This document shows, in pieces, positions 6,890 to 63,987 of a stretch of 64,000 bases of DNA. The stretch's first letter is position 1, and each line of letters opens with the position of its first letter. Source of the DNA: Thermoprotei archaeon (GTDB lineage Archaea; Thermoproteota; Thermoprotei; QMSL01). The notes beneath the pieces were generated by a model. The model worked only from the letters and a program-made list of their open reading frames with translations, made no database searches and had not been told where the DNA came from. Where the stretch lies: the NCBI GenBank assembly GCA_003650925.1, contig QMSP01000003.1, forward strand, positions 19,446 to 83,445, read 5' to 3'. The position numbers and the translations under genes were made by a program.

Positions 6890-8671
6890 CTATAGGACAT
6901 CAAGAGGTTCTATTTTAAGCATCTTTATAAATAAATCTGTGTATTCACTTTCAAGGTGTAGATTTAGGTGCCTTACTCTCTTAATGAGCGCCTTCATAAG
7001 CTCTCTAGCTTTACTTGATAATAGGAAAAGCTCACAGCCCATGAGAGAGCCATTGCCAATGAAGGTTACCTTACTTGGATCAACCCTGGGTATAAGGCCT
7101 ATATCTATGGCATTTTCAGGGTCCATGTAAGTACCAAAAGCTCCTGCAACATACAATACTTCAAGGTCCTCCGCGCTGACCTTAGCCTTCCTCATCAATA
7201 GCTCACAAGCAGCTCTAATAGCCGCTTTTGCAAGCTGAAGCTTCCTTATATCACTTTGCCTAAGCAAAATATCATGACCAGTTCCGCTCACGCTCCCTCG
7301 AATCACTACGAAGCACTTTTCTCCATCAATAAACTCTACGCCTGGTAGCTCGCTCTTAATAACACCTCTGGAGTCAATGATCCCTAGTCTTCTAAGTGAA
7401 GCCAGGAGGTCTATAAGAGCTGACCCGCACAAGCCTCTAGGAGGTATGTTCCCTATGGTAAAGTACCTTAACTGCCCTTCTTCAATCCATAATCTCTCTA
7501 TAGCTCCTTCTTCAGCTCTCATGCCACAGCTTATACCTACACCTTCAAATGCAGGACCTGCAGCACATGAGGTTACATAAAGCTTCTCTCCCTTCTTAAG
7601 CACAAGCTCACCATTAGTACCAAGGTCTATGAGTAGAGCGCATTTCCTCTCCATAATGCCCGAAGCTATGATATCTGCTGCTACATCTCCTCCCACATAT
7701 CCTCCTAGAATGGGCATTAAGTATGAGTAGGCCTCTTCATGCGCGATTATACCCAGCCTCCTGGCCTTGACTACATAGGGACCTATGATGGGCGAGTTAA
7801 AGGGAGCTACTCCTAAGCTTGTAGGCGAGACTCCTAACATTATAAGAGACATCACAGTATTTCCTGCCATAGCTACTGCCTTTATATCCCTGGGAGCTAA
7901 ATTCTTGATCTCAAGAAGAGAGCGTATAAGGTTATTAACAGTATCAACAAGCAAAGCTCTTAGCTCAATAAGTCCTCTATCTCCTTTTCTCATAATGTAC
8001 TCTATCCTGGATATGACATCTTCGCCCACTCTTAATTGCTTATTGTAGGCAGACAACACAGCCTCTCTTGTACCCTTCCTGATGTCTAGCAGAGAAGCCA
8101 CTACCGTAGTAGTGCCCAGGTCTACTGATATAGCGTATATCGCACCCTTATCCTCCTCAACATCTATGGCCTCTCTGGCCTCCAAGTCCATTACCATGTC
8201 CACCTCTCTGCAGTTCTCCCTAAGGAGCGATATCTTTCGCAGAGAGGAAAGGGATACTGTTGCATTCTTTAGGTCAGCATTGAGCTGACCAAGATCATGA
8301 AGCATTAGAGAGGCTGAGGAGATTTTGACTCTTACATGCCTTATTATAGGGTCTAGAGGCATGTCTACTCTAAAGCCCCACTCCAAGATCTTGGCCCTCA
8401 GGGGAAGGATCTCAATGACTGCATCATCGAGTACTCTTGTTTGGCATGCAAGTCTCCAGCCCATAGAAAGAAGTCCACCAAGTCTCTTCCTCTCTATGGG
8501 TGTGACCTCGCTTAAGGTGCCCTGAACTACTTTTACAAGACACTTACCGCAGAGACCCTTTCCACCACAGGGAGCAGGTAAGGGTATGCCATGTCTATGT
8601 AGTGAATCAAGAAGTCTCTCTCCCCTACGAACTCTCAAGACTAGTCCTTTAGGAAGAATCTTCAATTTCAC
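6890..8671 (-). CDS. 2Fe-2S ferredoxin fused to an ASKHA-fold ATPase (RACo-like, COG3894 family).
   Basis: N-terminal plant-type ferredoxin cysteine pattern (PCGGKGLCGKC…ACQ). ASKHA phosphate motifs DLGTTTV and IDLGTNGELVL. The 593-aa length matches reductive activators of corrinoid proteins. Confidence 0.65.
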   Translation of the reverse strand: MKLKILPKGLVLRVRRGERLLDSLHRHGIPLPAPCGGKGLCGKCLVKVVQGTLSEVTPIERKRLGGLLSMGWRLACQTRVLDDAVIEILPLRAKILEWGFRVDMPLDPIIRHVRVKISSASLMLHDLGQLNADLKNATVSLSSLRKISLLRENCREVDMVMDLEAREAIDVEEDKGAIYAISVDLGTTTVVASLLDIRKGTREAVLSAYNKQLRVGEDVISRIEYIMRKGDRGLIELRALLVDTVNNLIRSLLEIKNLAPRDIKAVAMAGNTVMSLIMLGVSPTSLGVAPFNSPIIGPYVVKARRLGIIAHEEAYSYLMPILGGYVGGDVAADIIASGIMERKCALLIDLGTNGELVLKKGEKLYVTSCAAGPAFEGVGISCGMRAEEGAIERLWIEEGQLRYFTIGNIPPRGLCGSALIDLLASLRRLGIIDSRGVIKSELPGVEFIDGEKCFVVIRGSVSGTGHDILLRQSDIRKLQLAKAAIRAACELLMRKAKVSAEDLEVLYVAGAFGTYMDPENAIDIGLIPRVDPSKVTFIGNGSLMGCELFLLSSKARELMKALIKRVRHLNLHLESEYTDLFIKMLKIEPLDVL

Positions 8672-16862: not shown

Positions 16863-17309
16863 ATGGTAGGACTGTTGGAGTCCATAGGAGATGATAGCTT
16901 GTACGAGAGTATCCGCTACAAGAGACCTCGAGGAGCCTGTGTATTTGAACTAAATGAAAGTCTCCAAGATGCAAAAATAACCTTAAGGCTAGCTGGCATC
17001 GACCTCATAAGAGTTAGAAAGCTGAGAAGCCTCAGTGACTATACACCTACCTCTAGAGCTTTTCGTGAGCTTGAAGATGAACTGATAGGAGAGGGTGAAT
17101 ATGAAGTATATGAAGGGTTTGGATTCTATGATGATACTCCCCTAACCCTAAGATTCTATTGTGATTATGAGACCCGGAAAGTGAGATATCTAGCAATACT
17201 TGCATATAGGCCGCGGGTCATGAGGAGGCTCAGAAGGAAGCTTGAGGAGCTGGGATGGAGGAGGAGATTTCTATTTGAGATAGAGGCTAGAGTTAGAAGG
17301 CCTACATGA
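16863..17309 (+). CDS. Hypothetical protein.
   Basis: A 148-aa ORF with an Arg-rich C-terminus. It is convergent with and overlaps the 3' end of the Csa3-like gene by 8 bp. Confidence 0.3.
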   Translation: MVGLLESIGDDSLYESIRYKRPRGACVFELNESLQDAKITLRLAGIDLIRVRKLRSLSDYTPTSRAFRELEDELIGEGEYEVYEGFGFYDDTPLTLRFYCDYETRKVRYLAILAYRPRVMRRLRRKLEELGWRRRFLFEIEARVRRPT

Positions 17310-49510: not shown

Positions 49511-49756
49511 TTATTCTCCACTAGACTTCTCAGCCCATGGAGGTCCTCCTCCACCTCTCCCTCTGCCTCTTCCCCAGCCTCTTCTTCCACGCCCCCTATC
49601 CACTCTATGTATCATATGGTGTGGAGCTCCGCATCTAGGACATTGAAGAGGTTTAGGCATGCCATAGGGCACCTCTATGATATTGCCACATGCCATGCAT
49701 TGAAAGCGTTTCATTGGAGGCTTTACCTCACTAGTCATTGAATACCCCCTCCACAA
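49511..49756 (-). CDS. Zinc-ribbon mini-protein with an RGG/RG-rich tail.
   Basis: CMACGN…CPRCG zinc ribbon followed by RGRGRRGWGRGRGRGGGGPPW. The true start is probably the internal Met (MKRFQC) at about 49714. Confidence 0.45.
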   Translation of the reverse strand: MWRGYSMTSEVKPPMKRFQCMACGNIIEVPYGMPKPLQCPRCGAPHHMIHRVDRGRGRRGWGRGRGRGGGGPPWAEKSSGE

Positions 49757-50630
49757 GCCTGGCTAAAGAGTTTATGACTCTATAGAAAGGTCTCTTCTCA
49801 TCCATGAGCTTGTTTAGATCTCCAGAGCTGTAAGCTGTGTGTACCACCTCATCATAGGGAACCATAGTCAAGGTGTACACGAAAGGTAACCCCTTAGCAA
49901 TTTCCCATACCTCCCTTATAAAGCTCTCCCAACCATCAAACTCTCCAACCTTATTGACTACGATAATACATTGCCTCTTAAACCTCTTATTTAGGTCTAG
50001 TACAAGTTTCAGATCATGAATTCCCATGGGAGTAGGCTCGGTGATTACAAGAACTATATTACTGATATTAAGAACCTCCGATATTATAGAACCTGCTCCC
50101 GGAGGACAGTCCACTAGAAGTATTTTGTTCTTGACATTATCTTTAACATAATCTATTAGAAGATGGGCTACTAAAGGACTTCTCTCATCTCCAGGAACTA
50201 TTTCGCCTCCTATAACAACAAGATCCTTAAGCTTGCCCCTCCATATATATCCCATGATTCGGTAGTCCTCCTTAACGGCATCATGGGGGCATACTATTTT
50301 GCATATGGTACATCCATTACATAATTCAGCTATGAGACTAGGCGGTCTTCCTGGAGGGGCTACAAGAGCATTCTCAGGACAATTCCTTACACATATACTG
50401 CATCCAGTACACTTCCTAGTATCTATTGAAGGAATAAAAGCTTTTAACTCCTTGACAATCTCCACTTGCTCCATGAAGACCTTAGACGAAGGATTATCAA
50501 CATCAGCATCGATATACACAACATCATGTTTCATCTTAGCCAAAAGATAGGCTATGCTAAGAGCTATAGTAGTCTTCCCTGTGCCTCCTTTGCCGCCTAG
50601 GACTCCTATAACCTGTACATTAGAGTGCAC
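49731..50630 (-). CDS. MinD/ParA-superfamily P-loop ATPase with an inserted 2x[4Fe-4S] ferredoxin domain (COG1149-like).
   Basis: Deviant Walker A GGKGGTGKTT. Two CxxCxxCxxxCP motifs (CTGCSICVRNCP, CNGCTICKIVCP). Confidence 0.7.
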   Translation of the reverse strand: MHSNVQVIGVLGGKGGTGKTTIALSIAYLLAKMKHDVVYIDADVDNPSSKVFMEQVEIVKELKAFIPSIDTRKCTGCSICVRNCPENALVAPPGRPPSLIAELCNGCTICKIVCPHDAVKEDYRIMGYIWRGKLKDLVVIGGEIVPGDERSPLVAHLLIDYVKDNVKNKILLVDCPPGAGSIISEVLNISNIVLVITEPTPMGIHDLKLVLDLNKRFKRQCIIVVNKVGEFDGWESFIREVWEIAKGLPFVYTLTMVPYDEVVHTAYSSGDLNKLMDEKRPFYRVINSLARLVEGVFND

Positions 50631-51495
50631 TTTCGATCACCTCCCTGAAGAGCTTGACTAGGGCTCTTGAAGCAGGACTCTCAGGGTATTTGACTATGAC
50701 TGGCTTGCCCATGACATAGGCTCTATAAACATGTTCATCATATGGTATCATGCCCTCCACTTTAATACCTCTCCTATGAAGTAGGTCAAGAATTCTCTTC
50801 ATGATTTCCTCCTTGTACTTATTCAAGATGACCAAATAGGGCACCTTGAAGTGTTCCAAGACCTTAATTACTCTTTCGCATCCCTGAAGTGATGCAAGAG
50901 AAGGCTCTAGCACTACTATGCCTAGGTCGGCTCCGGATATGGCAGCTATAGTAGGGCAGCCTATGCCAGGGGCTGAATCTATCACTATAACACCATCCTT
51001 CTTCGCAAGACCCTCAGCCATTTCCTTAGCCCTATAGACAAGCTTACCAGTATGCCTCATGCCAAGGGCTAAGTTTCCACTTATTAGAGGAAAACCATAA
51101 TCAGTCTCCATTATCCTAAGCTTACCTGGCTCTACATCCTTTAGGACTATAGCCTCTCTAGGACATACAAGACTACAAGCACCGCATCCTTCACATAGAT
51201 AATCTATAACCATGGGTTTACCTTCTATGAGCTCAATAGCTTTAAATTGACATGTAGCAATACACGCTAGGCAATCTATACACTTATCCCTATCTATGAA
51301 GGCTCTTTTAGCCCCCCTTTCAACATATTCCCTAACAACCCTCCCTCCTAAGACAAGATGAAGATTAGGAGCCTCAAGATCAGCATCAAGAGCTATAACA
51401 TTAAAACCATTCTCATGTAAATAAATAGAAAAATTTGAAGATATTAGAGTCTTTCCAACCCCTCCTTTGCCGCTTACCACCACTATTTGCTTCAA
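50620..51495 (-). CDS. MinD/ParA-superfamily P-loop ATPase with an inserted ferredoxin domain (paralog of the downstream gene).
   Basis: GKGGVGKT Walker A. Ferredoxin motifs CIDCLACIATCQ and CEGCGACSLVCP. An 11-bp overlap with the paralog. Confidence 0.7.
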   Translation of the reverse strand: MKQIVVVSGKGGVGKTLISSNFSIYLHENGFNVIALDADLEAPNLHLVLGGRVVREYVERGAKRAFIDRDKCIDCLACIATCQFKAIELIEGKPMVIDYLCEGCGACSLVCPREAIVLKDVEPGKLRIMETDYGFPLISGNLALGMRHTGKLVYRAKEMAEGLAKKDGVIVIDSAPGIGCPTIAAISGADLGIVVLEPSLASLQGCERVIKVLEHFKVPYLVILNKYKEEIMKRILDLLHRRGIKVEGMIPYDEHVYRAYVMGKPVIVKYPESPASRALVKLFREVIESAL

Positions 51496-51496
51496 G

Positions 51497-51844
51497 CTAT
51501 GCCTTCACCCCTAGCTTTCTCAAAGCCTCCCTAACCGTAATCTCTGGCTCTACATAGACTACTTCAATGCCTAGGCTTCTAAGAGCTGCTTCAGCTCTAG
51601 GTCCTAGTCTTGTTACCACGACCTTGCTAACTCCTTTATTAGCCAAGGTCTGTGCTGCAAGAGGGCCTGCACCATGTCCTACGCTAACGGCTGGATTCTC
51701 TATGGCCTCAACTTTAACTATTCTTGAACCTTCTAACTCCACTATGGTGAATGTCTTACATCTTCCAAAGCTTTGTGCTACGAGGTCATCAAGTCCTCCT
51801 TGACTAGCAGATGTTATAGCTATCTTCTCTCTTCCCATGGTCAT
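51497..51844 (-). CDS. NifX/NifB-C-terminal-like (dinitrogenase FeMo-cofactor biosynthesis) domain protein.
   Basis: About 115 aa with …KIAITSASQGGLDDLVAQSFGRCKTFTIVE…GHGAGPLAAQTL… typical of the COG1433 fold. Confidence 0.6.
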   Translation of the reverse strand: MTMGREKIAITSASQGGLDDLVAQSFGRCKTFTIVELEGSRIVKVEAIENPAVSVGHGAGPLAAQTLANKGVSKVVVTRLGPRAEAALRSLGIEVVYVEPEITVREALRKLGVKA

Positions 51845-51865
51845 TCCTCTTGCTGTAGTTATTAG

Positions 51866-52192
51866 TTAAGGTGGCGCCCTACTTTTCCTCCTTTCCTCAA
51901 TAATGCGCCTCAGCTCCTTTATTGCCTCTTCAACACTTCTAAGCTCCTCTTCTAGCTCTCTCTTATACTGCTCAAGCATGGAAAGTTCTTCCTCAGGGCT
52001 TGGTGGTGGAGGTGGTGGCATGTAGTACATTGGTGGTGGATAGTAAGCCGCATAGGCAGGATATGCTTGTTGAGATGGTTGTTGAGTCTGCTGGGCTTGT
52101 GGAGCACTTGAGGGAGCCGATACTGGAGGTGGCGGAGGAGGAGGCATGTAGTACATTAGTCTTCTCCACCACCAGTACCACATACTTTTCAC
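51866..52192 (-). CDS. Pro/Tyr/Trp-rich low-complexity protein with a C-terminal coiled coil.
   Basis: MKSMWYWWWRRLMYYMPPPPPPP…MYYMPPPPPPSPEEELSMLEQYKRELEEELRSVEEAIKELRRIIEERRK. The 12-nt direct repeat CATGTAGTACAT (52019-52030 and 52145-52156) encodes the repeated MYYM. Confidence 0.4.
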   Translation of the reverse strand: MKSMWYWWWRRLMYYMPPPPPPPVSAPSSAPQAQQTQQPSQQAYPAYAAYYPPPMYYMPPPPPPSPEEELSMLEQYKRELEEELRSVEEAIKELRRIIEERRKSRAPP

Positions 52193-52200
52193 CTTTTCAC

Positions 52201-52398
52201 CTAGGCTGGTGGCTTGAAAGCAGTTTCAAAAGCCTTTCTCCAAGCCTCTATAGCTGTTCTGAAGACATCAATGAAGAGCCACCAGTAGTACGTTGCCATG
52301 AGCAGACTGAATAGGTCATACATTAGTGGATATGGCATCAGGTACCAGTATGGTGAATATGGCAGAGGAGGAACATAATAATAGATGTATGGATTCAT
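52201..52398 (-). CDS. Tyr/Pro-rich mini-protein with a hydrophobic C-terminal half.
   Basis: MNPYIYYYVPPLPYSPYWYLMPYPLMYDLFSLLMATYYWWLFIDVF…. It is in the same frame as the upstream Trp-rich ORF, separated only by TGA plus 3 codons. Confidence 0.3.
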   Translation of the reverse strand: MNPYIYYYVPPLPYSPYWYLMPYPLMYDLFSLLMATYYWWLFIDVFRTAIEAWRKAFETAFKPPA

Positions 52399-52772: not shown

Positions 52773-55700
52773 CTAGGAGTGCAGTGCTTTCTCCGCTCTT
52801 TCTATGTACTTAGCCTGCTCTTTTGATGGGAGAGATCTCCACAGTAATAGCTGCTTCCTTATGCTATCGATGAAGTAGTAGTTTGATGAAACCCATATTG
52901 ACCTAGCGCCAGAGATCCTCCTTAGGTGTAGACTGAAGGCGTAGCGCTTCTCTTCGGGCAGTAGGCTTGCTGAGATCGCCACCTCCTGATTCACCTGCAT
53001 CTCATAGGGAGCCAAGCCTACTATTAGCAGTAGAGCATTCTTATCATACTGTATGCCCTTCAGCTCCCTGACCATGAAGGTCCTGGTCTCTCTGCCCTCT
53101 CCCTCAAAGTACTCCCTTAGGTATTCAATTACTCCTAGGGCCTCTTTTCTCGAGGGAACTCTTAGTGGTAGAGGTATGTCCCACTCATCCCCTCTTGGCT
53201 TAGTTGGTGGCTTCCATCTTCTCTCAAGTGAGGGAGTGACCATCTTAGCGGCTATTGAAGCTGGATAGGCTGCTGAGGTTAAGGTTGCAAGTATGATACA
53301 GGCTATGGCTACTAGTACGAAGAGGGAGGAGTAGTTGAGGACGAAGTATCCAGGAAGTAGGCCTGTGCTTATGAAGACTAGGTTTGTATAGAAGCCTATG
53401 ATGTAGCCGACGAGTGCTCCTAGGATAGCGTAGACCAGGGTTTCTGATACGAACATCGAGGCCACTCCTATGGGCGAAAGCCCTAGGCTGCTATAGGTGA
53501 AGATCTCCCTAACCCTTTCTTTGACTGCACCAAGCATGGTTACAACTATGTTAGCAATGCCTATAGCTAGGATTACGCTCACTAGGTTCCAGCCTAGGAG
53601 AAGGAATACGGTGATCCTGGACAGCTTATGAACAACCCCTTCCCATCCCATGAACACCTCAACGTCGAGGCACATGGCAGCATCCCATGCCATTTTATGA
53701 AGAACCTCCTTTGCAAGGTCTCTGTTGGCCTCTATGACTTCAGGCTTTAGTCTTATGGCTACATTAGCTACATATCCTCCCAGGTCCAGCGCTAATCTCC
53801 ATGGTACTATAAGGACTGAGCTCCAAGAGAGCGTCGTAGGTGCAGGGACCTGTGGGGGAGCGACAAACCTACATAGAGGCTGTACAGTTATGGGATCAAC
53901 AGGTGTTATGGCTCTATTGTCAAGGTCAACTACACTGCCAAGTATAGAGCCATCAAAGATACCCATGACCTTGAGCTTTATACCTGCCCACTCTATGACA
54001 TCTCCTATGGTTACATTTAGCTTCTCAGCTACATATTTCTCGAGTATGCATGCATAGTAGTCATCCTCTCTGAATCCCTCACCTATTAGCACGTCCTTGA
54101 ATATTATCTTGACCTCCTCCGCACGCATTCCAAGAAGAGCTCTTACAGCATAGATATTCTCACCATGTCTAAGTATGGCCTTAGGGCCTTCTGATGGCAG
54201 CTCAGTCTCTGGATAGTACCAAACTCTTGGGCATACTATAGCGTAGTCTCCAGCTAAACCTTCAGCGTACTCTATCAAGTGATGGTCAAATATATCATAG
54301 GGCACACAGTATTGCCTCTTCAAGAAGACTCCTGCGTATACAGCCTCCTCGGGAGGAGCTGCAGCCTTGGGAACAGCAACTCTCTTGACCGTAGTGTAGT
54401 AGGAGGCTGATGTTATCGAAGTGAGGCCTATAGCTATGGCTATGATAGTAGCTAATACAAGGGTTGTTCTAAGCTTCCTCTTCCTCATGTTCTCAACTGC
54501 TACCGAGAAGGCTAACATCATTATGCCTACAGTGCCTGTCTCAGGCTTGTGCAGGCCCTTGAGCTTTAGAGCTACCTCCTTCATTATCCTATTGACCTCA
54601 TCGAACAGTATGGCCAGTGTTATTATGAAGAAGACCTCTAGTAGGATACCCATGAAGCCCATGAAAGCATTGCTTATGATGCTTAGCCCTGGGTGCATGT
54701 TGTAGAATATGAATACAAGCACTATGGAGAGTGCTATGGTGACAAGCAGTCTTCTACGTCCTTCACTATGGAACAATAGACGCTCGAAGAAGAAGACAAA
54801 GGGTATCATGAGAGCGAAGAATGCTATTGTGGTGTTGGCTGTATCATTGATCAGGCTCATGACTTCCTCATAAGCTCTCACTGACCATGTCCATGCTAGA
54901 TAGGCCTCTCTATAGGCCTTGTCATATTCCATATTTCTATAGTATTCCTCAGCTAGTTCAAGGTGCCTCTTGGCCTCCTTGAGCACTTCCTCAGCGCTAA
55001 GGCTTCTGACAAGCTTTGAAGCTAGTGTATTATACCTATGTCTTGCTACGGTATACATGTCGTACGCATATCGATAGGCAGTGAAGGGTATGCTATAGGA
55101 CCTTATCTTATAGCCCAGCTCTATTCCACTTCCCTCGGGATATTCATCACTAGCGTTTACTACGAAGGCCACAGTTCTAGGCAGGCCAGGGCCTGCACTC
55201 ATAACAACGAAGGACCTAGTTCTTGGAAGGAGGAACACCATAGCTACTTCTTCATTTTGACTATACATGGTTCCATACCATATGTATATGCTTCGACTCT
55301 CGAAGTCATATGGAGTTATGATGAAGGACTCCAGTAGGAACTCCTCAGCATTCAGTCTAGGGTCTGGGATGTATATTCGTCTCATCAGCTTAGGGTCTAT
55401 GACGTCGTAGAGCGTTATGGTACATGCAGGCATTACTACAGTAGCAGCTTCAGCTGTCCCTCCTAGAAGCCATAGCTTGAAGTTCACAAACTTTATACCA
55501 TACTGACCATAGTCAGGAGCGTATATTATCTCTCCTGTATTCTCATCAACAACCCATGCATCTACATACCAGCCAATTCCTCTAGGAACTTCGGCAGGCA
55601 GGACAGGTGCCCAACCAGCATCTATGGAAGGTGTTGGACATAGGCCATGCACTATGAAGTCTCCATTCTCATCAGCATAGACGATGATCTGAGAGAATGG

Positions 55701-57437
55701 ATATGTTGATGCAAGCCATACTCTAACAAGAGCTCTTGGGATCTTGGAGAACCAGCCTTTGCTTATGTTGTATGTCCAGACAATACCTTTAAGAGTAACG
55801 AAGCCAGCACTCCACACCTGATAGCTGCCCACTTGGAACCACTGGAATCTCCTTGGCTTTATCAAGCTCCAGTCCAGCCCTAGCTTGGGTTCATATATCA
55901 CACAACACAGCACTGGCAGAGCCTGTATAACTAGCTTCTTTAGATTTTCCATGTTCACATAGGCACGGTCATCAAGAGGAGTATTCCAGTGCACTCTATA
56001 GGCATGTGCTGTCCTAAGGGTTATTGAAGGTAGTCCTGCCACAGCCAGAGGCTCGCTATCTATCATGTAGGGTGATGGGCTTCTTCCCCACCAGCCATAT
56101 TGAGTTATGAAGTCCTTGGTGCCCATTATTATGCTCACGCCGTACAAGGACTTGGCAACTTGCTCAACTGCATAGATCCATCTGCTATAGAGCCTCCTCA
56201 GTGGCTCCCATCTAGTGACCACGTATTGGCCTTCCCAATGTATAGCGTAACGATAGAAACAGCCTGCATGGAGTATGTCAAGTTCGTCAGAGTCCGTTGA
56301 GAAGTCCAGGTTGATCTGAGTCCAGACCTTATAGTTCTCCTTTTGTATCAAGTCATCGAATAGCACATATTCAACGAATTCCCTAGGACCAGCCAAGGCT
56401 TCCCAATGCCCTGAGAAGGCTACAAACATAAGGCTTCTTGGCGGTGGATTCTCAGAGAAGTATCGAGCAAGCTCAAGGAGAACAGCTATACTGGTTGCTT
56501 CATCAACTCCTCTCGAGAACGCTAGAACAGGGCTCCAGCTATCATAGTGAGCACTTATAATTATTATTTCATCAGGTGTCTCAGTGCCCTTGATCAGGCC
56601 TATGACATTGTAGGCTTCAACCTCTCTATAGAAGACTCTGGAAACTACTCTGACCTCAACCTTACCATGCTCCTTAAGCAGCTTGAGAAGCTGAGCTCCT
56701 ACGTCTGAGGTTACATATACTCGAGGAGTATATAGCGGAGTTATCAGGATCTTAGCCAGAGAGTCGAGCCTTGTAGCGTGTGGAGTCTCCATGAATATAA
56801 CTGCTTTGGCTCCAAGCTTGAAGGCATTAAGCCACTTTCTTCCACAATCATACCTAAGCATCACTATAGCTCCTTCAATACGTTTGCCATTGAAATCCTC
56901 TAGGTCTCCATCATCAGCGTAAACCAATGTTCCTCTAAGCCCTTCTGGTGGTGTTGGAGAAGTCTGTATTGAATTAGGCCACATTGAATAGGCCTTTAAC
57001 CTCATTCTCACAGGGCTTATTACTTCTATGTAACACTCCTCTTCGACAGGAGCTACCACCTTATACTTCTGGAAGTACCCATCTAGTCTCTCAAGCAGTC
57101 TCTCGGATTTGAAGCCGAATTCCTTAGGCGTTATTAATCCATATTCCTCAAACTTCTCAGCGATGTATTCGGCAACCTCCCTAAGGCCAGGCTGACCTGG
57201 TATTCTACTGCCAGCCTTCTCTATTACGGAGAGGTGCTCAGCCACTCTATCATAGTCTATACTCTTCACGACCTTCTCATATATTGACCTTATCTCCTCC
57301 TCGGGTACTTGACCATAGTTCCCCCTGATGCTAACCGATGTCACCAAGGATGTCATTGCAATAGATGAAATGAGCATTATAGCCAATAGTAGGATGAGCA
57401 TACGGTCTTTGACTCTAAGACTCTTAACGTCAAGCAT
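52773..57437 (-). CDS. Giant (1554 aa) membrane fusion protein: signal/TM, M28-peptidase-like plus PA ectodomain, polytopic middle region, and a C-terminal MacB/FtsX-type permease module.
   Basis: N-terminal TM (LILLLAIMLISSIAM). M28-like HxD and Asp motifs (IISAHYDSW, GVDEATSIAVLLEL, FSGHWE). A MacB-like N-terminal helix …VENMRKRKLRTTLVLATIIAIAIGLTS…, a large extracytoplasmic segment and a C-terminal FtsX three-TM bundle (…LLLGWNLVSVILAIGIANIVVTMLGAVKERVREIFTYSSLGLSPIGVASMFVSETLVYAILGALVGYIIG…). No ABC ATPase lies nearby. Confidence 0.65.
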   Translation of the reverse strand: MLDVKSLRVKDRMLILLLAIMLISSIAMTSLVTSVSIRGNYGQVPEEEIRSIYEKVVKSIDYDRVAEHLSVIEKAGSRIPGQPGLREVAEYIAEKFEEYGLITPKEFGFKSERLLERLDGYFQKYKVVAPVEEECYIEVISPVRMRLKAYSMWPNSIQTSPTPPEGLRGTLVYADDGDLEDFNGKRIEGAIVMLRYDCGRKWLNAFKLGAKAVIFMETPHATRLDSLAKILITPLYTPRVYVTSDVGAQLLKLLKEHGKVEVRVVSRVFYREVEAYNVIGLIKGTETPDEIIIISAHYDSWSPVLAFSRGVDEATSIAVLLELARYFSENPPPRSLMFVAFSGHWEALAGPREFVEYVLFDDLIQKENYKVWTQINLDFSTDSDELDILHAGCFYRYAIHWEGQYVVTRWEPLRRLYSRWIYAVEQVAKSLYGVSIIMGTKDFITQYGWWGRSPSPYMIDSEPLAVAGLPSITLRTAHAYRVHWNTPLDDRAYVNMENLKKLVIQALPVLCCVIYEPKLGLDWSLIKPRRFQWFQVGSYQVWSAGFVTLKGIVWTYNISKGWFSKIPRALVRVWLASTYPFSQIIVYADENGDFIVHGLCPTPSIDAGWAPVLPAEVPRGIGWYVDAWVVDENTGEIIYAPDYGQYGIKFVNFKLWLLGGTAEAATVVMPACTITLYDVIDPKLMRRIYIPDPRLNAEEFLLESFIITPYDFESRSIYIWYGTMYSQNEEVAMVFLLPRTRSFVVMSAGPGLPRTVAFVVNASDEYPEGSGIELGYKIRSYSIPFTAYRYAYDMYTVARHRYNTLASKLVRSLSAEEVLKEAKRHLELAEEYYRNMEYDKAYREAYLAWTWSVRAYEEVMSLINDTANTTIAFFALMIPFVFFFERLLFHSEGRRRLLVTIALSIVLVFIFYNMHPGLSIISNAFMGFMGILLEVFFIITLAILFDEVNRIMKEVALKLKGLHKPETGTVGIMMLAFSVAVENMRKRKLRTTLVLATIIAIAIGLTSITSASYYTTVKRVAVPKAAAPPEEAVYAGVFLKRQYCVPYDIFDHHLIEYAEGLAGDYAIVCPRVWYYPETELPSEGPKAILRHGENIYAVRALLGMRAEEVKIIFKDVLIGEGFREDDYYACILEKYVAEKLNVTIGDVIEWAGIKLKVMGIFDGSILGSVVDLDNRAITPVDPITVQPLCRFVAPPQVPAPTTLSWSSVLIVPWRLALDLGGYVANVAIRLKPEVIEANRDLAKEVLHKMAWDAAMCLDVEVFMGWEGVVHKLSRITVFLLLGWNLVSVILAIGIANIVVTMLGAVKERVREIFTYSSLGLSPIGVASMFVSETLVYAILGALVGYIIGFYTNLVFISTGLLPGYFVLNYSSLFVLVAIACIILATLTSAAYPASIAAKMVTPSLERRWKPPTKPRGDEWDIPLPLRVPSRKEALGVIEYLREYFEGEGRETRTFMVRELKGIQYDKNALLLIVGLAPYEMQVNQEVAISASLLPEEKRYAFSLHLRRISGARSIWVSSNYYFIDSIRKQLLLWRSLPSKEQAKYIERAEKALHS

Positions 57438-57493
57438 CCTAAGAACCTCCTAGGATAATAAAAGATTAAAAGAATTTAAAAAGGTTGTTTTGT

Positions 57494-59563
57494 CTAGACT
57501 AGCCTAGCCCAGAACATTGGCCAAGCTCTTAGGCAGAACTGTAACACTGCTGTTATGAAGAAGTTGAATCCATAGCCCATTGCGAAGCCTATAGCAGCAG
57601 GTACAGCTCTCTCCTCATATAGCTTGGCGCCGCCTACTCTGAACACTATCACCTTGATTATTAGAGCTATTAGGCAGTTTAGCCACATCCACTCCATGAC
57701 GAACAGTGTCATCATCATGGCTACTGGGTTCCAGAAGAACCATGGGAACCTCATTCTCAGTAGGTATACTATTATGACAAACACTATACCAGTCCACGTT
57801 AGGTGTATGTACTCAGGTATGGTGAACTCAGGTGTTGTGAGTGTGTAGTTCTGAGCCCAGCCTAGAGCCCATTCGTGATAAGGCACTGGGCCTAGCTTGC
57901 TTAGACCTCCAAGGTGATGTATCCACCATAGGCCAAATACATGAGTCCATATTCCAGCTACGATGGCAGTTATTATCATTGCCCAAAATACATCAGCAGC
58001 TCTCACCTTGTTGACCTCAGCAACCTTGTACATGTAGATGGTGGTCCTTATGTTGAAGGGTGATAGCCTTGGGCCTGCGTTTCCTAGAGCGCATACTAGG
58101 AATATCGACTTTATCATGGTTGGATCAGTTGTTGGTATGGCTGGAGCTCCTAGCATTGCATAGACATATGGTGTGCCAAATAGCTGGTATACTGTGTAGT
58201 GCCTCCATAGCTCTGCTGAACCTCTTATGTTGGCTATCTGGAATAGCCAGTATGTTAGCAGGACGAATATAGCAACGTGCACAGGGACTCCAGAGCCTAC
58301 CCACATTGCTAGCCAGAGTAGGCAGAGTATTATAGTACCCCATGCTACAAGCCTATACGATACGCCCTGCTCCTTGATGTCCTCCTTGCCAAAGGCACAC
58401 TTGAAGATGGTTGCGAGGTGCTTGTAGGTGGTTATCAGAACCCATACGCCTATTCCCAGAGTTATACCGCTTGTAGCCCAGTACCAGTACTTGAAGGGAC
58501 CGTTTCTTCCATAGTAGCCAGCCATGATGCCCATGTACATACTCTCTACGCCAGGCCTGTACTCCAGTATGCCTAGCTTGACTCCTACGACTGGGTATAG
58601 GAAGGCGAATATGAACCAGGTCAGCACAGTAGTGGCGAGTATATCAAGTGGACATAGGAAGAATATTGGTATCTCTGGTATCATCAGATAAGCAAATGCG
58701 AAGCCTCCTGGGAATAGAGTAGTTGTGTATGGTGATAGGTCTACAGGCTGTGTGCTCCACTCAGTGCTTGGTGGAATGGCTGGTATGAAGTATCTGAATA
58801 CGTCTGGCAGGGTTCCTAGGAAGCCTAATATGAAGAACACCCAGAACAGCTTATTCCTTGGTATCCTAAGGTCAAACAGCTTCGTCCTGTTCTTCTCAGG
58901 GTCTATTTCACTAGCCCACTGAATTAGATAAGCAGTTGGTAGTACAGCTGGGAATGGAAGCCTCTCAACTTCAATGAAGGGCTTTCTAAGCATGAAGCCC
59001 CAGAAGTAGCCAGTTATGGTCCATAGTAGGAAGAACAGTATCCAGTAGACCAAGGATGGACCCCAAGCTCCCCATGGAACTTCGCCTATGCCTACGTTCT
59101 CCCTAGCCCAGGCCAAGCCGTACCAAGCAGCATCTACGATGTTCTTGTCCTTAGGTATCCAGAACTCGGGAATTATATCCCACCAAGCCTTATAGGGATC
59201 GTTCTCGGCAGCGTATAATGGCATGAAGAAGTGATAAGTGGGAACACAAGATATGCCCCATAGTAGCTGACCATACTGGATGTAAGTGACACCAGCGCAC
59301 ATTAAGCATGTTGTAGTTAGTACGGTTAGCTCAGCTGCGGTAAGCCTCCACTTGGGATTCACCCATCCTAAGAGCTCAGATACTATGATCACTAGGATTA
59401 TTGGCGGTGGTAATACTCCTGGGAAAGCCCACCATTCAGTTAGCGTCTGGATCCAGAAGTTGCCAACGAACGATGCCAATATTACTACTATCATCCAGAA
59501 GAGCACTCTGGGAGTCAATCCTCTCTGTAGCTCCTCCTTAGGAGCCTCGCTCATAAATATCAC
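57494..59563 (-). CDS. Polytopic membrane protein (689 aa), a paralog of the divergent gene and possibly OPT-superfamily-like.
   Basis: At least 14 hydrophobic segments. It shares the FIEVERLPFPAV motif with 59719..61650 (FIEVEKLPFPFA) and an N-terminal LT-x-R. It sits 57 bp upstream of the giant gene on the same strand. Confidence 0.55.
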   Translation of the reverse strand: MIFMSEAPKEELQRGLTPRVLFWMIVVILASFVGNFWIQTLTEWWAFPGVLPPPIILVIIVSELLGWVNPKWRLTAAELTVLTTTCLMCAGVTYIQYGQLLWGISCVPTYHFFMPLYAAENDPYKAWWDIIPEFWIPKDKNIVDAAWYGLAWARENVGIGEVPWGAWGPSLVYWILFFLLWTITGYFWGFMLRKPFIEVERLPFPAVLPTAYLIQWASEIDPEKNRTKLFDLRIPRNKLFWVFFILGFLGTLPDVFRYFIPAIPPSTEWSTQPVDLSPYTTTLFPGGFAFAYLMIPEIPIFFLCPLDILATTVLTWFIFAFLYPVVGVKLGILEYRPGVESMYMGIMAGYYGRNGPFKYWYWATSGITLGIGVWVLITTYKHLATIFKCAFGKEDIKEQGVSYRLVAWGTIILCLLWLAMWVGSGVPVHVAIFVLLTYWLFQIANIRGSAELWRHYTVYQLFGTPYVYAMLGAPAIPTTDPTMIKSIFLVCALGNAGPRLSPFNIRTTIYMYKVAEVNKVRAADVFWAMIITAIVAGIWTHVFGLWWIHHLGGLSKLGPVPYHEWALGWAQNYTLTTPEFTIPEYIHLTWTGIVFVIIVYLLRMRFPWFFWNPVAMMMTLFVMEWMWLNCLIALIIKVIVFRVGGAKLYEERAVPAAIGFAMGYGFNFFITAVLQFCLRAWPMFWARLV

Positions 59564-59718
59564 CAGATATGGTCGTTAAAAATTTATATTTGAACTCTAA
59601 ATTTAAGCACTCTCCTTACTACTGTTTTTAAGTTTAAACGAGTTTAGAGTTTCGATGTTTAAGTTCTAAAGGCTAAAAAGTCCTTTCCAGCAATAATTTC
59701 GTATCGGTGTGATAGGAC
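59564..59718. promoter_or_regulatory. AT-rich divergent promoter region between the paralogous membrane-protein genes, with an inverted repeat AACTCTAAA/TTTAGAGTT.
   Basis: GAACTCTAAATTT…GAGTTTAGAGTTTCG and a GTTTAAAC palindrome were seen directly. Confidence 0.3.
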
Positions 59719-61650
59719 ATGGAATCAAGAGAAGGTGTTGTACTGAAGCCTGGCCTTACATGGAGATCAATCATGGCCATCATGTATGCCTCTTTAGTCT
59801 TCCTGCCAGTGGCCATATATATGCAATTAGTAGCAGGCACTACAGTACTCGTTGCAGCCGCCTACATAACAGCAATACTATTCAGTGAGTTCTCTAGAGT
59901 ATTAGGTGCGCCTCTCACGAAACAGGAGCTCTTCATAGTCTATGAAATGACCTTGATAGCTGCAAGCGCTGCAGTGTTTACAGGCATGTTGTTCAAAGGC
60001 TATCTCGCTACTTCCCCCATGTCTTGGTCATTCGTAGTGCAAGGAAGACCACTTCCAGAAATAGTGCCCTCATGGTGGGCTCCAACACATGGCTCGCCTG
60101 TGTACAAGTTAAGGACGTTAATGCATCCTGACTGGGCGCTGCCCATCCTATTAGCTTGTCTTCAATATGGTGCCTTTTATCTACTTGAGGAGATAGCTCT
60201 ATCAATGTTCCTGGCCTATCTATTCATTGAGGTTGAGAAGCTTCCATTCCCCTTTGCATCCATAGATGCATCCATGGTAACGGCTCTTAGTGAAAGAAGA
60301 CCTGGAATGCTAAGAGTATTCGCTATAAGTGCCATTCCAGGATTGATAATAGGTGGCCTCGTATTCCTACCTAACATAATGGGCACACCGCTAGTTCCAC
60401 TTCCTTGGTTTGATGCGACATTCTTCACGGAGAAGTACATGCCTGGAGCTATGATAGGATTTGGCACAGACCCTTCATTAATAGTTACAGGATTTCTAGT
60501 GCCGTTTACATCAGCCTTCTACATGCTCATAGGCAGCTTGGCAGTATGGGTTTTTGGCAACTACTTTACCCTGACTACATTCGCAAGCGCCTTTCCAGAA
60601 TGGGTTGCAGAATACTCCAAGGGCATGACTATAGCTGCTATCTATCAGAGGTCTCTTCTTCGAGTGTGGATTTGTCCTCAAATAGGCTTTGTCCTAGCTT
60701 TAGCAACCCTAGTTGTGCTCAGAACTATAAAGCCCATAATTAGAGCCTTCAAGGCATTCACAAAGATTTCATTAAGAGCTAAAGTAGGAGCAGGATACTT
60801 GCCTCTTCCAGTAATAGTGGGCATGTACTTGGCTGGAACTCTGGGCTCTGTCTTCACATTTATGTTGCTAGTCAGAGATTGGCCTTGGGGATACATATGG
60901 ATACCACTTGCCCTTTCCCTTGGCTTCAGCTTCTTCCAAGGTTTGGCTTGTGTAAGAGCTATAGGAGAGACTGGCTATTCCATCTACTTCCCCTATGTCT
61001 GGCATATATCGGTGTACGCTACAGGCTACTCGGGCTTCGCAGCTTGGGAGTTCCCACCAGTGATAGGCGGCTCATATGTCCCACCTGTAGGTGGTGCTCC
61101 CTCATGGGTTAATATGATAAAGGCGGCCTATTTGACTGAGACAAGGCCAATGGACTTCTTCAAAGCACTACTCATAACCGTGATAGTGTACCACATATTC
61201 AGCTTCATCTACGTTGACTTCTTCTGGAGGATGGCACCCATACCATCAATAATATACCCATTCGTCCAAATACAGTGGCCAGCCATGGTGATAATGGAAG
61301 GAGCTTGGATCACGAGGCAAATCGGCGTCAAGGCTCACCTGATAATGCAGTCCTATGCCGCTATGTTGGGTATATGCATAGCAGGAGAGCTGGCCTCTAG
61401 GTATTTGGGAGTTCCGTTCTCAGCTGTAGGCTTAGTCACAGGAACAGCGTGGTTGCCTCCCACAATGATACCTGTGTTCATAGGATCCGCCTTAAGCAGA
61501 TTCGTATTTCGTAGAGTTTTCGGCAGAGAGTTATGGGATGAGTACAGAGCGGTCGTGGTGGCAGGCTTCCTCTGTGGGCAGAGCATAATAGTAGGCATAG
61601 GAGTAGCTGCTTCGCTTATAGCTAGAGCGACTTGGGTATGGCCCTATTGA
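59719..61650 (+). CDS. Polytopic membrane protein (643 aa), a paralog of 57494..59563.
   Basis: Shares the FIEVEKLPFPFASIDA motif and the overall TM layout with the divergent gene. Confidence 0.55.
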   Translation: MESREGVVLKPGLTWRSIMAIMYASLVFLPVAIYMQLVAGTTVLVAAAYITAILFSEFSRVLGAPLTKQELFIVYEMTLIAASAAVFTGMLFKGYLATSPMSWSFVVQGRPLPEIVPSWWAPTHGSPVYKLRTLMHPDWALPILLACLQYGAFYLLEEIALSMFLAYLFIEVEKLPFPFASIDASMVTALSERRPGMLRVFAISAIPGLIIGGLVFLPNIMGTPLVPLPWFDATFFTEKYMPGAMIGFGTDPSLIVTGFLVPFTSAFYMLIGSLAVWVFGNYFTLTTFASAFPEWVAEYSKGMTIAAIYQRSLLRVWICPQIGFVLALATLVVLRTIKPIIRAFKAFTKISLRAKVGAGYLPLPVIVGMYLAGTLGSVFTFMLLVRDWPWGYIWIPLALSLGFSFFQGLACVRAIGETGYSIYFPYVWHISVYATGYSGFAAWEFPPVIGGSYVPPVGGAPSWVNMIKAAYLTETRPMDFFKALLITVIVYHIFSFIYVDFFWRMAPIPSIIYPFVQIQWPAMVIMEGAWITRQIGVKAHLIMQSYAAMLGICIAGELASRYLGVPFSAVGLVTGTAWLPPTMIPVFIGSALSRFVFRRVFGRELWDEYRAVVVAGFLCGQSIIVGIGVAASLIARATWVWPY

Positions 61651-61712: not shown

Positions 61713-62792
61713 CTACTCAAGAGGTAGCTTGATAGGTCTACCTTCAGCTGATGATCTGAGGGCAGCTTCGGCTATCTCTAGGGCCCTGAGACCTTCTACT
61801 TCATTTATCTCAGGCCTCTTGTCCTCTATTATGCACTTGATGAAGTATTCTAGCTCCCTCTTGTACATGAGCTTCCAGTCCTCCTCCATCCTCAACTGCT
61901 CATAGGGACCATCAGCTATCCTGATCTTCATGACCCCGCTTAAATATCCTTCCACAGCCACAGTGCCTTTCTCGCCAACTACTCCCCATGAGTCCCAGCT
62001 ATGTGTGCCAGACCAGCTCTGTATGAGAGTTGATATGGTGCCCTCCTTGTGAATACATACTACTGATGCGTTATCCTCAATCGTTATGCCCGACTGTACA
62101 GTCATGACCTTAGCGTAGACAGTATCTACATCTCCAGCGAACCATCGAAAAGCATCGAATGCATGAACTGCATTTTCAACTAACATGCCACCACTTATGG
62201 TCTTGTCCTTAAGCCATGGAGCTGGGGGTAATGGCCATACACAGACTCTCCATATGTTAACAGGTCTTCCAAGTCTTCCACTATCTATTAGCTCCTTGAC
62301 GTGCTTGAACATTGAGTGGAATCTGAGGCAGAAGCCCACCATACACTTGACGCCAGCCTTCTTTATAGCGTCCACTACCTCTTTAGCATCCTTTACATTG
62401 GTGGTAATGGGCTTCTCCACAAATACATGTTTACCTGCCCTGGCAGCATTTATCACTTGATCCTTATGAGTAAGAGGTGGCGTAGCTATGAGGACAGCGT
62501 CTACCTCAGGCATTTCAAGCACTTTATGATAGTCAGTATAGTACTTCTCAACTTTGAACTGCTCAGCAGTTTTTCTTGCCTTCTCCTCAACTACATCACA
62601 TACAGCTACGACTTCTACGTCAGGGATCTCTGTCAGAGAAGGCAAGTGAACACTTGTCGATATGAAACCACAGCCTATAACAGCCATTTTCACTCTTGCC
62701 ACGTTACCACCATAAATAACAAGATGAGGTTTCAATTTAACTCTTAGTGAAGTACTCCCAAGGCCTTTTGATGAACTCTCTAATCCTCTCAA
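61713..62792 (-). CDS. Gfo/Idh/MocA-family NAD(P)-dependent oxidoreductase.
   Basis: N-terminal Rossmann MAVIGCGFISTSVHLPSL and the EKP motif (VFVEKPIT). Confidence 0.75.
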   Translation of the reverse strand: MRGLESSSKGLGSTSLRVKLKPHLVIYGGNVARVKMAVIGCGFISTSVHLPSLTEIPDVEVVAVCDVVEEKARKTAEQFKVEKYYTDYHKVLEMPEVDAVLIATPPLTHKDQVINAARAGKHVFVEKPITTNVKDAKEVVDAIKKAGVKCMVGFCLRFHSMFKHVKELIDSGRLGRPVNIWRVCVWPLPPAPWLKDKTISGGMLVENAVHAFDAFRWFAGDVDTVYAKVMTVQSGITIEDNASVVCIHKEGTISTLIQSWSGTHSWDSWGVVGEKGTVAVEGYLSGVMKIRIADGPYEQLRMEEDWKLMYKRELEYFIKCIIEDKRPEINEVEGLRALEIAEAALRSSAEGRPIKLPLE

Positions 62793-63987
62793 TAATCTCC
62801 TCCGATAATTCCCTTCCTACGTTTTGTGAGACAGGACAGACCTTAAGGCAAGCATTACAGCTTAGACAAAGATCATCTTTTATCAGGGCTTGATCCTTAA
62901 GTATTATAGCCTCTCTTGGACAGCGTTCCACACAAAAGCCGCAAGCCACGCATAGTAATGCTCTTACTATGACCTGAATTGTGTTCTGAACTATGGTCTC
63001 CACAATATCGATAGGGGATGTGATTTTTATGCTTCTCTCCGCAATCTCAACTCTAGAATTCTGGTAATTCAGAACAACTGAATGATGGCCAACTTCATAG
63101 CATGAGGTAAAGGAAACTATAATGTTTGATACTCTCTTCAGATCAAGAGGTTGACTAGGCCTCAGGCTTATGGTCAACGTATCCCGGCTTGAGATGACTT
63201 GCTCGATACTCATGTGTATGGGTAAGGCCCTTAGCTTCATTTTCTCAACATTAAACCTCATGTTCTCTAGAAAGCGCCTCATATCCCCCGGCAACCTATG
63301 CCATCTCCATAATGAGAACCTCATCCACAGAGGATGAAGCCCATGTCTCTCAGCCCATCGATTAAGAGCCTTCTCCCACATCTCCCAAAGAGCTGGATAG
63401 TACATTTTAACCAGCTCTAGCTCGGCTAGTTCACAGGCAGGACATAGCCAACAGCCTACTCTATCAAATCCTTTGAAGTATAGTGGATTAGGCCTTAATC
63501 CTTCCTTAATGATATATATCCACACGTCTAGTGAGGTCCATTCATTGATAGGAGCTATGACATGAGAAGTGGGCAATATCTTGCTCCTAGTGAGTATAGG
63601 CATCCTTGCTCTAGCTGCAGACTCGTATTTGCGCTGACCTACAATGCTTATGTTGCCTTCAGGAAACTGCCTTTTTAGATACCTGACCATAGGAGCTAAT
63701 TTGCACACTTTACAGCACCATCTGTAGTCTCTAGCTGGAGGTCCCAGAATCTCCATAGCTCTGAAGAATATATTGCCTGCCTGAGCTCTTGCGATCTCTA
63801 CGCCAAGGCCATCAGCGACGTGATCTATGCTGGCATAAGTCTCAGGAAGCTCAAGTCCTGTATCGCTGAATAACGCCTTCACATCCCCCAAGAATCTAAG
63901 TGCCAGATGCAAAGCTACGAGGCTGTCCTTGCCTCCTGAGAACGATACCACGAAGGGCTTTCTGTATTTGGTAGCTTCTTCAAACAC
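62737..63987 (-). CDS. PAPS-reductase/PP-loop ATP-pyrophosphatase family protein with a C-terminal 2x[4Fe-4S] ferredoxin domain.
   Basis: PP-loop VVSFSGGKDS. C-terminal CVACGFCVERCP and CLSCNACLKVCP. Confidence 0.65.
   Translation of the reverse strand: MFEEATKYRKPFVVSFSGGKDSLVALHLALRFLGDVKALFSDTGLELPETYASIDHVADGLGVEIARAQAGNIFFRAMEILGPPARDYRWCCKVCKLAPMVRYLKRQFPEGNISIVGQRKYESAARARMPILTRSKILPTSHVIAPINEWTSLDVWIYIIKEGLRPNPLYFKGFDRVGCWLCPACELAELELVKMYYPALWEMWEKALNRWAERHGLHPLWMRFSLWRWHRLPGDMRRFLENMRFNVEKMKLRALPIHMSIEQVISSRDTLTISLRPSQPLDLKRVSNIIVSFTSCYEVGHHSVVLNYQNSRVEIAERSIKITSPIDIVETIVQNTIQVIVRALLCVACGFCVERCPREAIILKDQALIKDDLCLSCNACLKVCPVSQNVGRELSEEIIERIREFIKRPWEYFTKS

Follow-up and report, generated by a model that had tools for sequence, protein, structure and literature searches.

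The window analysed here, a stretch of 64,000 nucleotides from a Thermoprotei archaeon (GCA_003650925.1, contig QMSP01000003.1, positions 19,446 to 83,445 of the forward strand), contains two divergently oriented genes for large polytopic membrane proteins, termed A and B, and next to them the gene of a giant membrane protein, termed G. A, B and G together make up a conserved three-gene module, in which A and B are the probable permease components. The features of the locus, in window coordinates, are:

52773..57437, minus strand: gene G, encoding a 1554-aa giant membrane protein with a PA + M28-like ectodomain followed by a MacB/LolE/FtsX-type module
57438..57493, minus strand: A-to-G spacer, 56 bp, 26.8% GC, with a T-rich/TTTAAA stretch
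57494..59563, minus strand: gene A, a 689-aa open reading frame (ORF) from a GTG, encoding a polytopic membrane protein with DUF6785 and DUF6784 and a modelled OPT/YSL fold
59564..59718: A/B divergent intergenic region, 155 bp, AT-rich
59719..61650, plus strand: gene B, a 643-aa ORF encoding a polytopic membrane protein of a small, remote branch of the oligopeptide transporter (OPT) superfamily

A preliminary description of this DNA had noted the two large divergent ORFs and their AT-rich 155-bp spacer, and both were borne out with exact coordinates. The spacer has a GC content of 31.6%, against ~45% across the window, and is the presumed site of the two archaeal promoters, with TATA-like A/T boxes, as judged by eye, at ~25–35 nt upstream of the start of A and of B. 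A likelier start of A than the GTG is an ATG at 59554, three codons inside the gene, which would give a product of 686 aa. An Rfam scan in and around the intergenic regions gave no match. The same description had placed A and B on either side of the peptidase/FtsX gene, but the order is such that both lie on the same side of G, with A directly upstream of G on the minus strand and B diverging from A on the plus strand. It had also proposed co-transcription of A and G across a gap of 57 bp. The gap is in fact 56 bp, and within it the ATG of G is preceded at 8 nt by a Shine-Dalgarno-like GGAGG. The linkage of the two genes is sustained by the conserved module described below, while their co-transcription in the window is inferred. 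It is supported, not proven, because the closest relatives of A, in loci L091 and L089, keep the A-to-G adjacency with spacers of 46–53 bp.

The link between the gene pair and the giant M28/FtsX gene proved real and far stronger than the letters of the window alone show. Already on the contigs of relatives, A, B and G were found together in other orders: G overlapping a downstream B with A divergent (L003), G diverging from a B-A tandem (L008 and L006, the latter from the same metagenome-assembled genome (MAG) as the window), or A, B and G in one direction (L009). GTDB representative genomes were then scanned with a 10-sequence alignment of the B family, yielding 79 loci, and every ORF of the module loci was compared with G and with hidden Markov models (HMMs) of A and of B. 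From a third protein search, run with an A-family profile, only 8 more members came, all of them distant. The archaeal loci belong to Thermofilaceae, Bathyarchaeia, Brockarchaeota and other Thermoproteota, and the bacterial loci mostly to the Planctomycetes–Verrucomicrobia–Chlamydiae (PVC) group (Phycisphaerae, Verrucomicrobia, Kiritimatiellae, Lentisphaerae and Omnitrophota), with one Poribacteria and one Abditibacteriales locus outside it. Where at least 7 kb is available on both flanks of B, G is present at 25 of 25 archaeal loci (directly adjacent at 24) and A lies within 10 kb at 22; the corresponding bacterial numbers are 10/11 for G and 7/11 for A. G and B often overlap, since the median distance between them, measured on stop-to-stop ORFs, is ~-10 nt. 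The synteny check suggested in the preliminary description thus finds the module recurring with variable gene order: at least 12 orders occur, the commonest being A>G>B> (11 loci), G>B>A> (8), A<G>B> (7) and G<B>A> (5), and that of the window is rare (L036 and L089/L090). A, B and G are therefore linked over dozens of archaeal and PVC-bacterial loci despite the shuffling of their order. Literature searches on M28+FtsX in archaea and on OPT+M28 in Bathyarchaeota, Thermofilum or Brockarchaeota returned nothing relevant, and the G-B-A module, which recurs in many Thermoproteota and PVC bacteria, is apparently undescribed. A candidate Rosetta-stone fusion of A and G, the 1449-aa ORF at 2681–7027 of L087, was rejected: it looks like the product of a frameshift or of read-through in an assembly of high GC content, the C-terminus of A being lost before G's own start.

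The three proteins have also diverged in concert. Alignment-based distance matrices of 35 non-redundant complete modules are strongly correlated (Mantel r of 0.95 for B and G, 0.91 for A and B and 0.91 for A and G; P<=5e-4), a correlation to which the shared species phylogeny contributes in part. In genomes with more than one module, A, B and G of 16 out of 20 modules are all nearer to a module of another genome (distances of 0.05–0.4) than to the paralogous module of their own genome (0.55–0.8). Because paralogous modules track across genomes for all three proteins, A, B and G have diversified as units into several cognate lineages. The MAG of the window itself carries a second complete module (L006, 3450–12101), whose proteins are 32% (A), 53% (B) and 37% (G) identical to those of the window. 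Four to five B genes per genome occur, for example, in Thermofilaceae SKYB99 and Bathyarchaeia JZ-1_201803_bins_90.

The relationship between A and B is real and remote. The preliminary description had called them clear paralogs with the same layout of transmembrane (TM) segments, to be confirmed by pairwise alignment. Pairwise BLASTP of A against B gave no significant similarity (best segment E=0.078), whereas hhalign of the A-family against the B-family profile aligned them from N- to C-terminus over 595 columns with 99.85% probability (E=1e-30) at 18% identity. The two profiles were built from relatives of each protein (8 sequences in the A1 alignment and 35 in the A2 alignment). Blocks that match in this profile alignment are G-L-T-x-R, (S/T)-K-Q-E-L, E-x-E-[KR]-L-P-F-P, R-x-x-x-E and the C-terminal G-G/G-x-G helices. 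A crude hydropathy scan found 13 strongly hydrophobic segments in each protein, and the AlphaFold2 models of both are all-helical bundles. Hence the homology stands on profile comparison and a shared fold, the word "clear" does not, and as to the common TM layout, A and B are each polytopic and their profiles align along the whole length. A and B are homologous throughout, with an ancient split. Assignment to the A or the B type by HMM was never ambiguous, and both types are found in archaea and in bacteria, so the split is older than the dispersal of the module. A and B represent two old subfamilies of the OPT/yellow-stripe-like (YSL) superfamily, whose members are secondary transporters of the elevator type; they are very distant relatives and not a local duplicate pair.

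The two short motifs that had first suggested kinship were both located: the near-identical FIEVERLPFPA (A196–206) and FIEVEKLPFPF (B169–179), and an N-terminal LT-x-R, present as GLTPR at A15 and GLTWR at B12. The DNA encoding the longer motif forms an inverted repeat, I1, of 29 nt with 27/29 identical (93%):

58950..58978, minus strand: DNA for the FIEVERLPFP motif of A, inverted repeat I1 with 60223–60251
60223..60251, plus strand: DNA for the FIEVEKLPFP motif of B, inverted repeat I1 with 58950–58978

Codons are identical at 7/9 positions of the shared motif (P ~0.05 given codon usage), and both the A family and the B family conserve the core E-[KR]-L-P-F-P. The repeat is thus explained by conserved amino acids together with codon bias.

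The resemblance to OPT transporters, which had been offered as a faint one, holds for both proteins, at different levels. B matches Pfam OPT (PF03169) over residues 166–624 with 45.2 bits (E=7e-12), above the gathering score of 25.8, and 9/35 members of its family match at E<=0.01. An HMMER scan of 1.84e9 representative proteins with the B profile retrieved 890 at E<=1e-3 and 327 at E<=1e-30, and canonical OPTs are mostly not among them. Because this profile finds so few proteins in so large a set, B can be placed in a small branch that lies at the limit of the OPT model's reach. A has no match to Pfam OPT at E<=1. It matches DUF6785 with 98.2 bits (cutoff 25, E=5e-28) and DUF6784 with 33.2 bits (cutoff 26.4, E=6e-8), as do 15/15 and 14/15, respectively, of its aligned relatives; B matches neither. 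NCBIfam and PADLOC hold no model for A or B. The profile check therefore returned OPT for B and DUF6785/6784, not OPT, for A.

The fold brings the two together. The AlphaFold2 model of B (pLDDT 90.8, pTM 0.91) has as its only significant Foldseek match in the PDB the barley transporter YS1 (HvYS1; 7wst/7wsr; E=3.5e-11, TM-score 0.65–0.72), with the next match at E=0.13, and for the model of A (pLDDT 80.6, pTM 0.85) the same structures are the sole significant match (E=3.2e-10, TM-score 0.61–0.69). The remaining matches of either model have E>=0.04 and TM-scores of ~0.1. Sequence and profile searches of the PDB with A and B gave nothing even at E<=10, the link to HvYS1 coming from the fold search only. 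On this evidence B belongs to the OPT superfamily by profile and by modelled fold, while A, formally a DUF6785/6784 protein, is tied to it by hhalign to the B family and by its predicted fold only.

Members of the OPT superfamily have 16–17 transmembrane segments, and those of prokaryotes fall in the YSL-like subdivision; in bacteria and archaea they were biochemically uncharacterised as of a 2011 survey, with peptide transport suggested by genome context for many of them (PMC3061005). The motifs NPG and KIPPR of the PT clade occur in neither A nor B, which agrees with prokaryotic OPTs being YSL-like (PMC3061005). The solved representative of the OPT/YSL group, HvYS1, is a proton-coupled elevator-type importer that forms homodimers by way of the scaffold domains and of a beta-strand at its C-terminus (PMC9691689). 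A and B resemble the OPT/YSL transporters (PF03169, TC 2.A.67) and HvYS1 in size (~640–690 aa), in being polytopic and in superposing over the whole chain (TM-score 0.61–0.72), but their sequence identity to HvYS1 is just 13–15%. For OPT proteins, no account was found of a cognate A+B pair tied in this way to a giant protein of the FtsX type. Pfam assigns no function to DUF6785 and DUF6784, which A and its relatives fit, and a literature search found no paper mentioning either family. Here these families are linked to the OPT fold, with a subset recruited into the G-B-A module and other members stand-alone or in tandem.

The third component, G, combines two halves. Its predicted layout comprises an N-terminal signal-anchor, an extracytoplasmic PA + M28-like domain, a beta-rich/helical region and three TM helices, followed in the C-terminal half by a MacB/LolE/FtsX-type module (TM1-PCD-TM2-4) and a cytoplasmic domain of ~150 aa, in keeping with a 1+3+1+3 pattern of TM segments by hydropathy. 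The protein passes the Pfam thresholds for Peptidase_M28 (54.1 bits, cutoff 21.3, E=2e-14, with only profile positions 1–105 of 193 covered) and FtsX (40.7 bits, cutoff 25.5, E=3e-10), and stays under those for MacB_PCD (20.2 bits, cutoff 27) and PA. The best PDB sequence matches of the N-terminal half are PA-domain aminopeptidases (2ek8, YwaD 6hc6), NAALADL and the transferrin receptor, and those of the C-terminal half are MacB, YtrF, LolE and LolC.

G shares the PA + M28 arrangement with the PA-M28 metallopeptidases and their non-catalytic relatives (2ek8, YwaD, GCPII/NAALADL, transferrin receptor) and retains the first-His and Asp motifs (AHYDS, VDEAT), but departs from the metallopeptidases at the catalytic site. 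In HMMER alignments, His344-Trp345 of G occupy the positions of the M28 catalytic Glu and the adjacent zinc-ligand Glu (Glu151/Glu152 equivalents). Across 47 full-length members of the G family the pair is H in 34 and W or Y in 42, and no member has Glu at the general-base position; Glu also replaces the last zinc-ligand His (His256-equivalent) in 40/47, while the first His is kept in 32/47 and the second Asp in 37/47. This conserved, non-canonical site argues against an ordinary aminopeptidase, although it may still serve metal-dependent chemistry or binding. A further difference from M28 enzymes is that the domain is fused to a membrane mechanotransducer.

Like the type VII ATP-binding cassette (ABC) permeases (MacB, LolC/LolE, FtsX, YtrF), G has an FtsX domain, with a MacB-like extracytoplasmic core domain separating TM1 from TM2. 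It is larger (~1500 aa), with an extra 830-aa ectodomain and three TM helices upstream and an additional C-terminal cytoplasmic domain, and a partnership with OPT-fold proteins is no known feature of the class. By its sequence, then, G is in part a member of the type VII class, whose mode of action it would share, and it fails the catalytic test of M28. Residues 816–1442 also match two PADLOC models, 'CARF_m8--CARF_LolE_TM' and 'CARF_m8--CARF_Beta-galactosidase_LolE_TM' (PDLC01991/PDLC01990; E=1e-68 and 3e-40), at profile positions 25–593/810. The match ends at ~595, ~215 positions before the profile end, so that G appears to share the membrane core of the CARF_m8/LolE_TM family without its terminal region, which is presumably the CARF. 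Relative to that family, the ectodomain of G is PA/M28-like, not beta-galactosidase-like. Near some modules lie G-like paralogues with other ectodomains (L032, 19792–21912; L034, 15845–18748; L055, 6729–9764; L057, 3–2108), which have the LolE_TM core and match the CARF_m8 models; those of L032, L034 and L055 are true members of the CARF_m8 type. The paralogue in L032 scores 965 bits against the CARF_m8 model and extends into its terminal region (1751/1791), and that in L034 adjoins a URO-D gene and another A-type gene fragment.

The bacterial versions of the module offer a possible energy source. In PVC-bacterial loci, in L092 and in the archaeal L054, from 'Thermoproteati archaeon 3817-70', the module has as neighbours a gene for a small FtsX protein with four TM segments and one or two genes for LolD/MacB/FtsE-like ATPases. 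Such ATPases with a small FtsX protein that lacks the periplasmic domain precede the modules of L086 (1889–4072), L068 (757–2317), L078, L079, L081, L085 and L087, and an ATPase/small-FtsX region lies beside the module at 16951–17998 of L092. Bacterial G proteins are larger (1939 aa in L086), and bacterial A proteins reach ~990–1010 aa.

Other genes recur next to the module: URO-D-family proteins at 19 loci, Gfo/Idh/MocA oxidoreductases at 10 loci and in the window, and MttB-like methyltransferases, fucose-isomerase-like proteins and B12/radical-SAM proteins. Neither these neighbours nor the contexts of stand-alone DUF6785 genes point specifically to peptides. The window's Gfo/Idh/MocA gene (61713–62792, minus strand) is convergent with B, and the class is also present in the bacterial L086; its listed TTG start is probably too far upstream, an internal start at MAVIGCGF suiting the Rossmann motif. 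Beyond it, at 62737–63987 on the minus strand, an unusual fusion joins a PAPS-reductase domain to a C-terminal 2x[4Fe-4S] ferredoxin domain. On the other side, four genes on the same strand as G follow it after a 580-bp gap (49731–52192, minus strand), encoding a proline-rich 108-aa DUF5320-like protein, a Nitro_FeMo-Co (NifX/NifB-like) protein and two MinD/ParA-like P-loop proteins with Cys-rich ferredoxin-type inserts; nothing ties these four genes to the module. Three ORFs of 100–143 aa that are antisense to or overlap real genes (52000–52314, 53725–54057 and 62316–62747, all on the plus strand) are most likely spurious.

Taken together, we judge it slightly better than an even prospect that A and B supply the permease part of a conserved module with G, forming a cognate and possibly heteromeric OPT-fold uptake permease that is paired with a mechanotransducer-like ectodomain protein. 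In this scheme, A and B would act together in importing a small organic solute, plausibly as a heterodimer by analogy with the homodimeric HvYS1; the C-terminal tails, conserved as ATWxxPY in the B family and RAxPxxxARL in the A family, may be the counterpart of the dimerising strand of HvYS1, since they lie where that strand is. The ectodomain of G would capture or process the solute at the cell surface, with G serving as a mechanotransducer or receptor and not as a canonical aminopeptidase. In the bacterial versions the FtsX-type module of G may be powered by the dedicated ATPases, and where one genome holds several modules, these would differ in substrate. Candidate substrates are peptide-like or glycan-derived compounds and metal chelates.

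Several observations weigh against this scheme. A search for LolD-like ABC ATPases at E<=1e-6 found none in the window and none at most archaeal loci; it covered the window and the module loci, and an ATPase encoded elsewhere in the genome is possible. Three archaeal loci with full flanks have B and G but no A within 10 kb (L037, L039, L048). DUF6785 proteins also occur without G or B and can thus work alone: at 8001–14766 of L093 three DUF6785/DUF6784 genes lie in tandem, and at 1208–6228 of L001 a relative of A that is among its closest non-identical ones (37%) is followed by GHL10/GHL6 glycoside-hydrolase-like genes and not by G. The part of the correlated distances that is due to species phylogeny counts on the same side, and both the direction of transport and the substrate are pure inference. 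The L001 context hints that some A-type proteins handle glycan-derived solutes. The L093 contig also carries the sporulation-type genes YabQ, DivIC and Peptidase_S55 and is spore-former-like.

The stand-alone genes and the B+G loci lacking A would be expected if A and B each transported a substrate of its own unaided, sharing with G no more than location or regulation and forming neither a heteromer nor a physical coupling. B has its own divergent promoter region in the window, and HvYS1 works as a homodimer. Such independence seems unlikely to us in view of a three-way linkage that persists through gene-order shuffling in two domains, of the frequent overlap of G and B and of the co-divergence of cognate A, B and G lineages. 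A closer coupling than that of the favoured scheme can also be envisaged, in which A, B and G are one physical machine: a MacB/FtsX-type mechanotransducer with a pseudo-peptidase ectodomain that would hand its substrate to, or gate, a heterodimeric OPT-fold elevator transporter, ATP-driven where LolD-like ATPases are present, with several substrate-specific paralogous modules per genome and exchange between Thermoproteota and PVC bacteria. We hold this to be a speculative prospect of low probability. Distinctly improbable is the idea, close to the extracellular proteolysis and peptide uptake of the preliminary description, that G is an active extracellular M28 aminopeptidase whose products are imported by A and B as oligopeptides. 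The N-terminal half of G is nearest to PA-domain aminopeptidases and passes the Pfam M28 threshold, the OPT family includes peptide transporters, with suggestions of peptide transport from context (PMC3061005), and the host lineages Bathyarchaeia and Thermofilaceae are heterotrophs. The proteolysis half of this idea is weakened by the replacement of the Glu-Glu pair by His-Trp, family-wide as H-[WY] and with a general-base position that is never Glu, by Glu at the His256-equivalent and by a match to only the first half of the M28 profile. The lack of the PT-clade motifs in A and B counts against it as well, as do neighbours (URO-D-like, Gfo/Idh/MocA, MttB-like, fucose-isomerase-like) that are not peptidases or enzymes of amino-acid catabolism.

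MacB/LolCDE/FtsEX-type modules characteristically do work on the outward side of the membrane. The module might accordingly be imagined as a cell-envelope machine, in which G acts as a type VII ABC mechanotransducer on a surface substrate while A and B export or flip a precursor. The PDB matches of the C-terminal half of G fall in this class, its degenerate hydrolase-like domain, helical segment and FtsX domain may recall FtsEX with EnvC/PcsB-type partners, and dedicated ATPases are present in bacterial loci. Yet characterised OPT/YSL members are importers, up to about five paralogous modules per genome suit substrate-diverse uptake better than a single housekeeping role in the envelope, and the neighbouring genes look catabolic, so that we consider an envelope role very unlikely. 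The preliminary description had also entertained a duplication in inverted orientation. In the form of a recent, local event that copied one uncharacterised membrane-protein gene into A and B, this is refuted, its probability being negligible. They are adjacent and divergent and share a near-identical 10-residue motif with 27/29 identical nucleotides, but the proteins are 18% identical, give a BLASTP E of 0.078 and belong to different families, DUF6785/6784 for A and a small family marginal to OPT for B, each with its own relatives in archaea and bacteria. Recent duplication or gene conversion was also rejected as the source of the 29-nt repeat, which is simply motif-coding DNA of a family-wide motif with a codon identity that is not significant (P ~0.05).

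The preferred reading, a cognate pair of OPT-fold permeases working with G, gives a concrete and testable hypothesis on the role of these transporters. The individual folds are known; what appears to be new is that, in archaea as in PVC bacteria, two deep lineages of the OPT fold come as cognate partners of a giant protein that joins an ectodomain to FtsX. The locus links DUF6785/6784, families on which no literature was found, to the OPT fold, and reveals that two deep lineages of this fold are inherited as cognate pairs with G in uncultured heterotrophic archaea (Bathyarchaeia, Brockarchaeota, Thermofilaceae) and in PVC bacteria. For annotation it carries a warning, in that G should not be taken as an active M28 aminopeptidase when a potential for 'protein degradation' is deduced from MAGs. 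The module may represent a new way in which a secondary transporter is coupled to a mechanotransducer like those of type VII ABC systems, and if A, B and G did form a single machine, primary-active mechanotransduction would be combined in it with secondary transport, making it a hybrid of the two.

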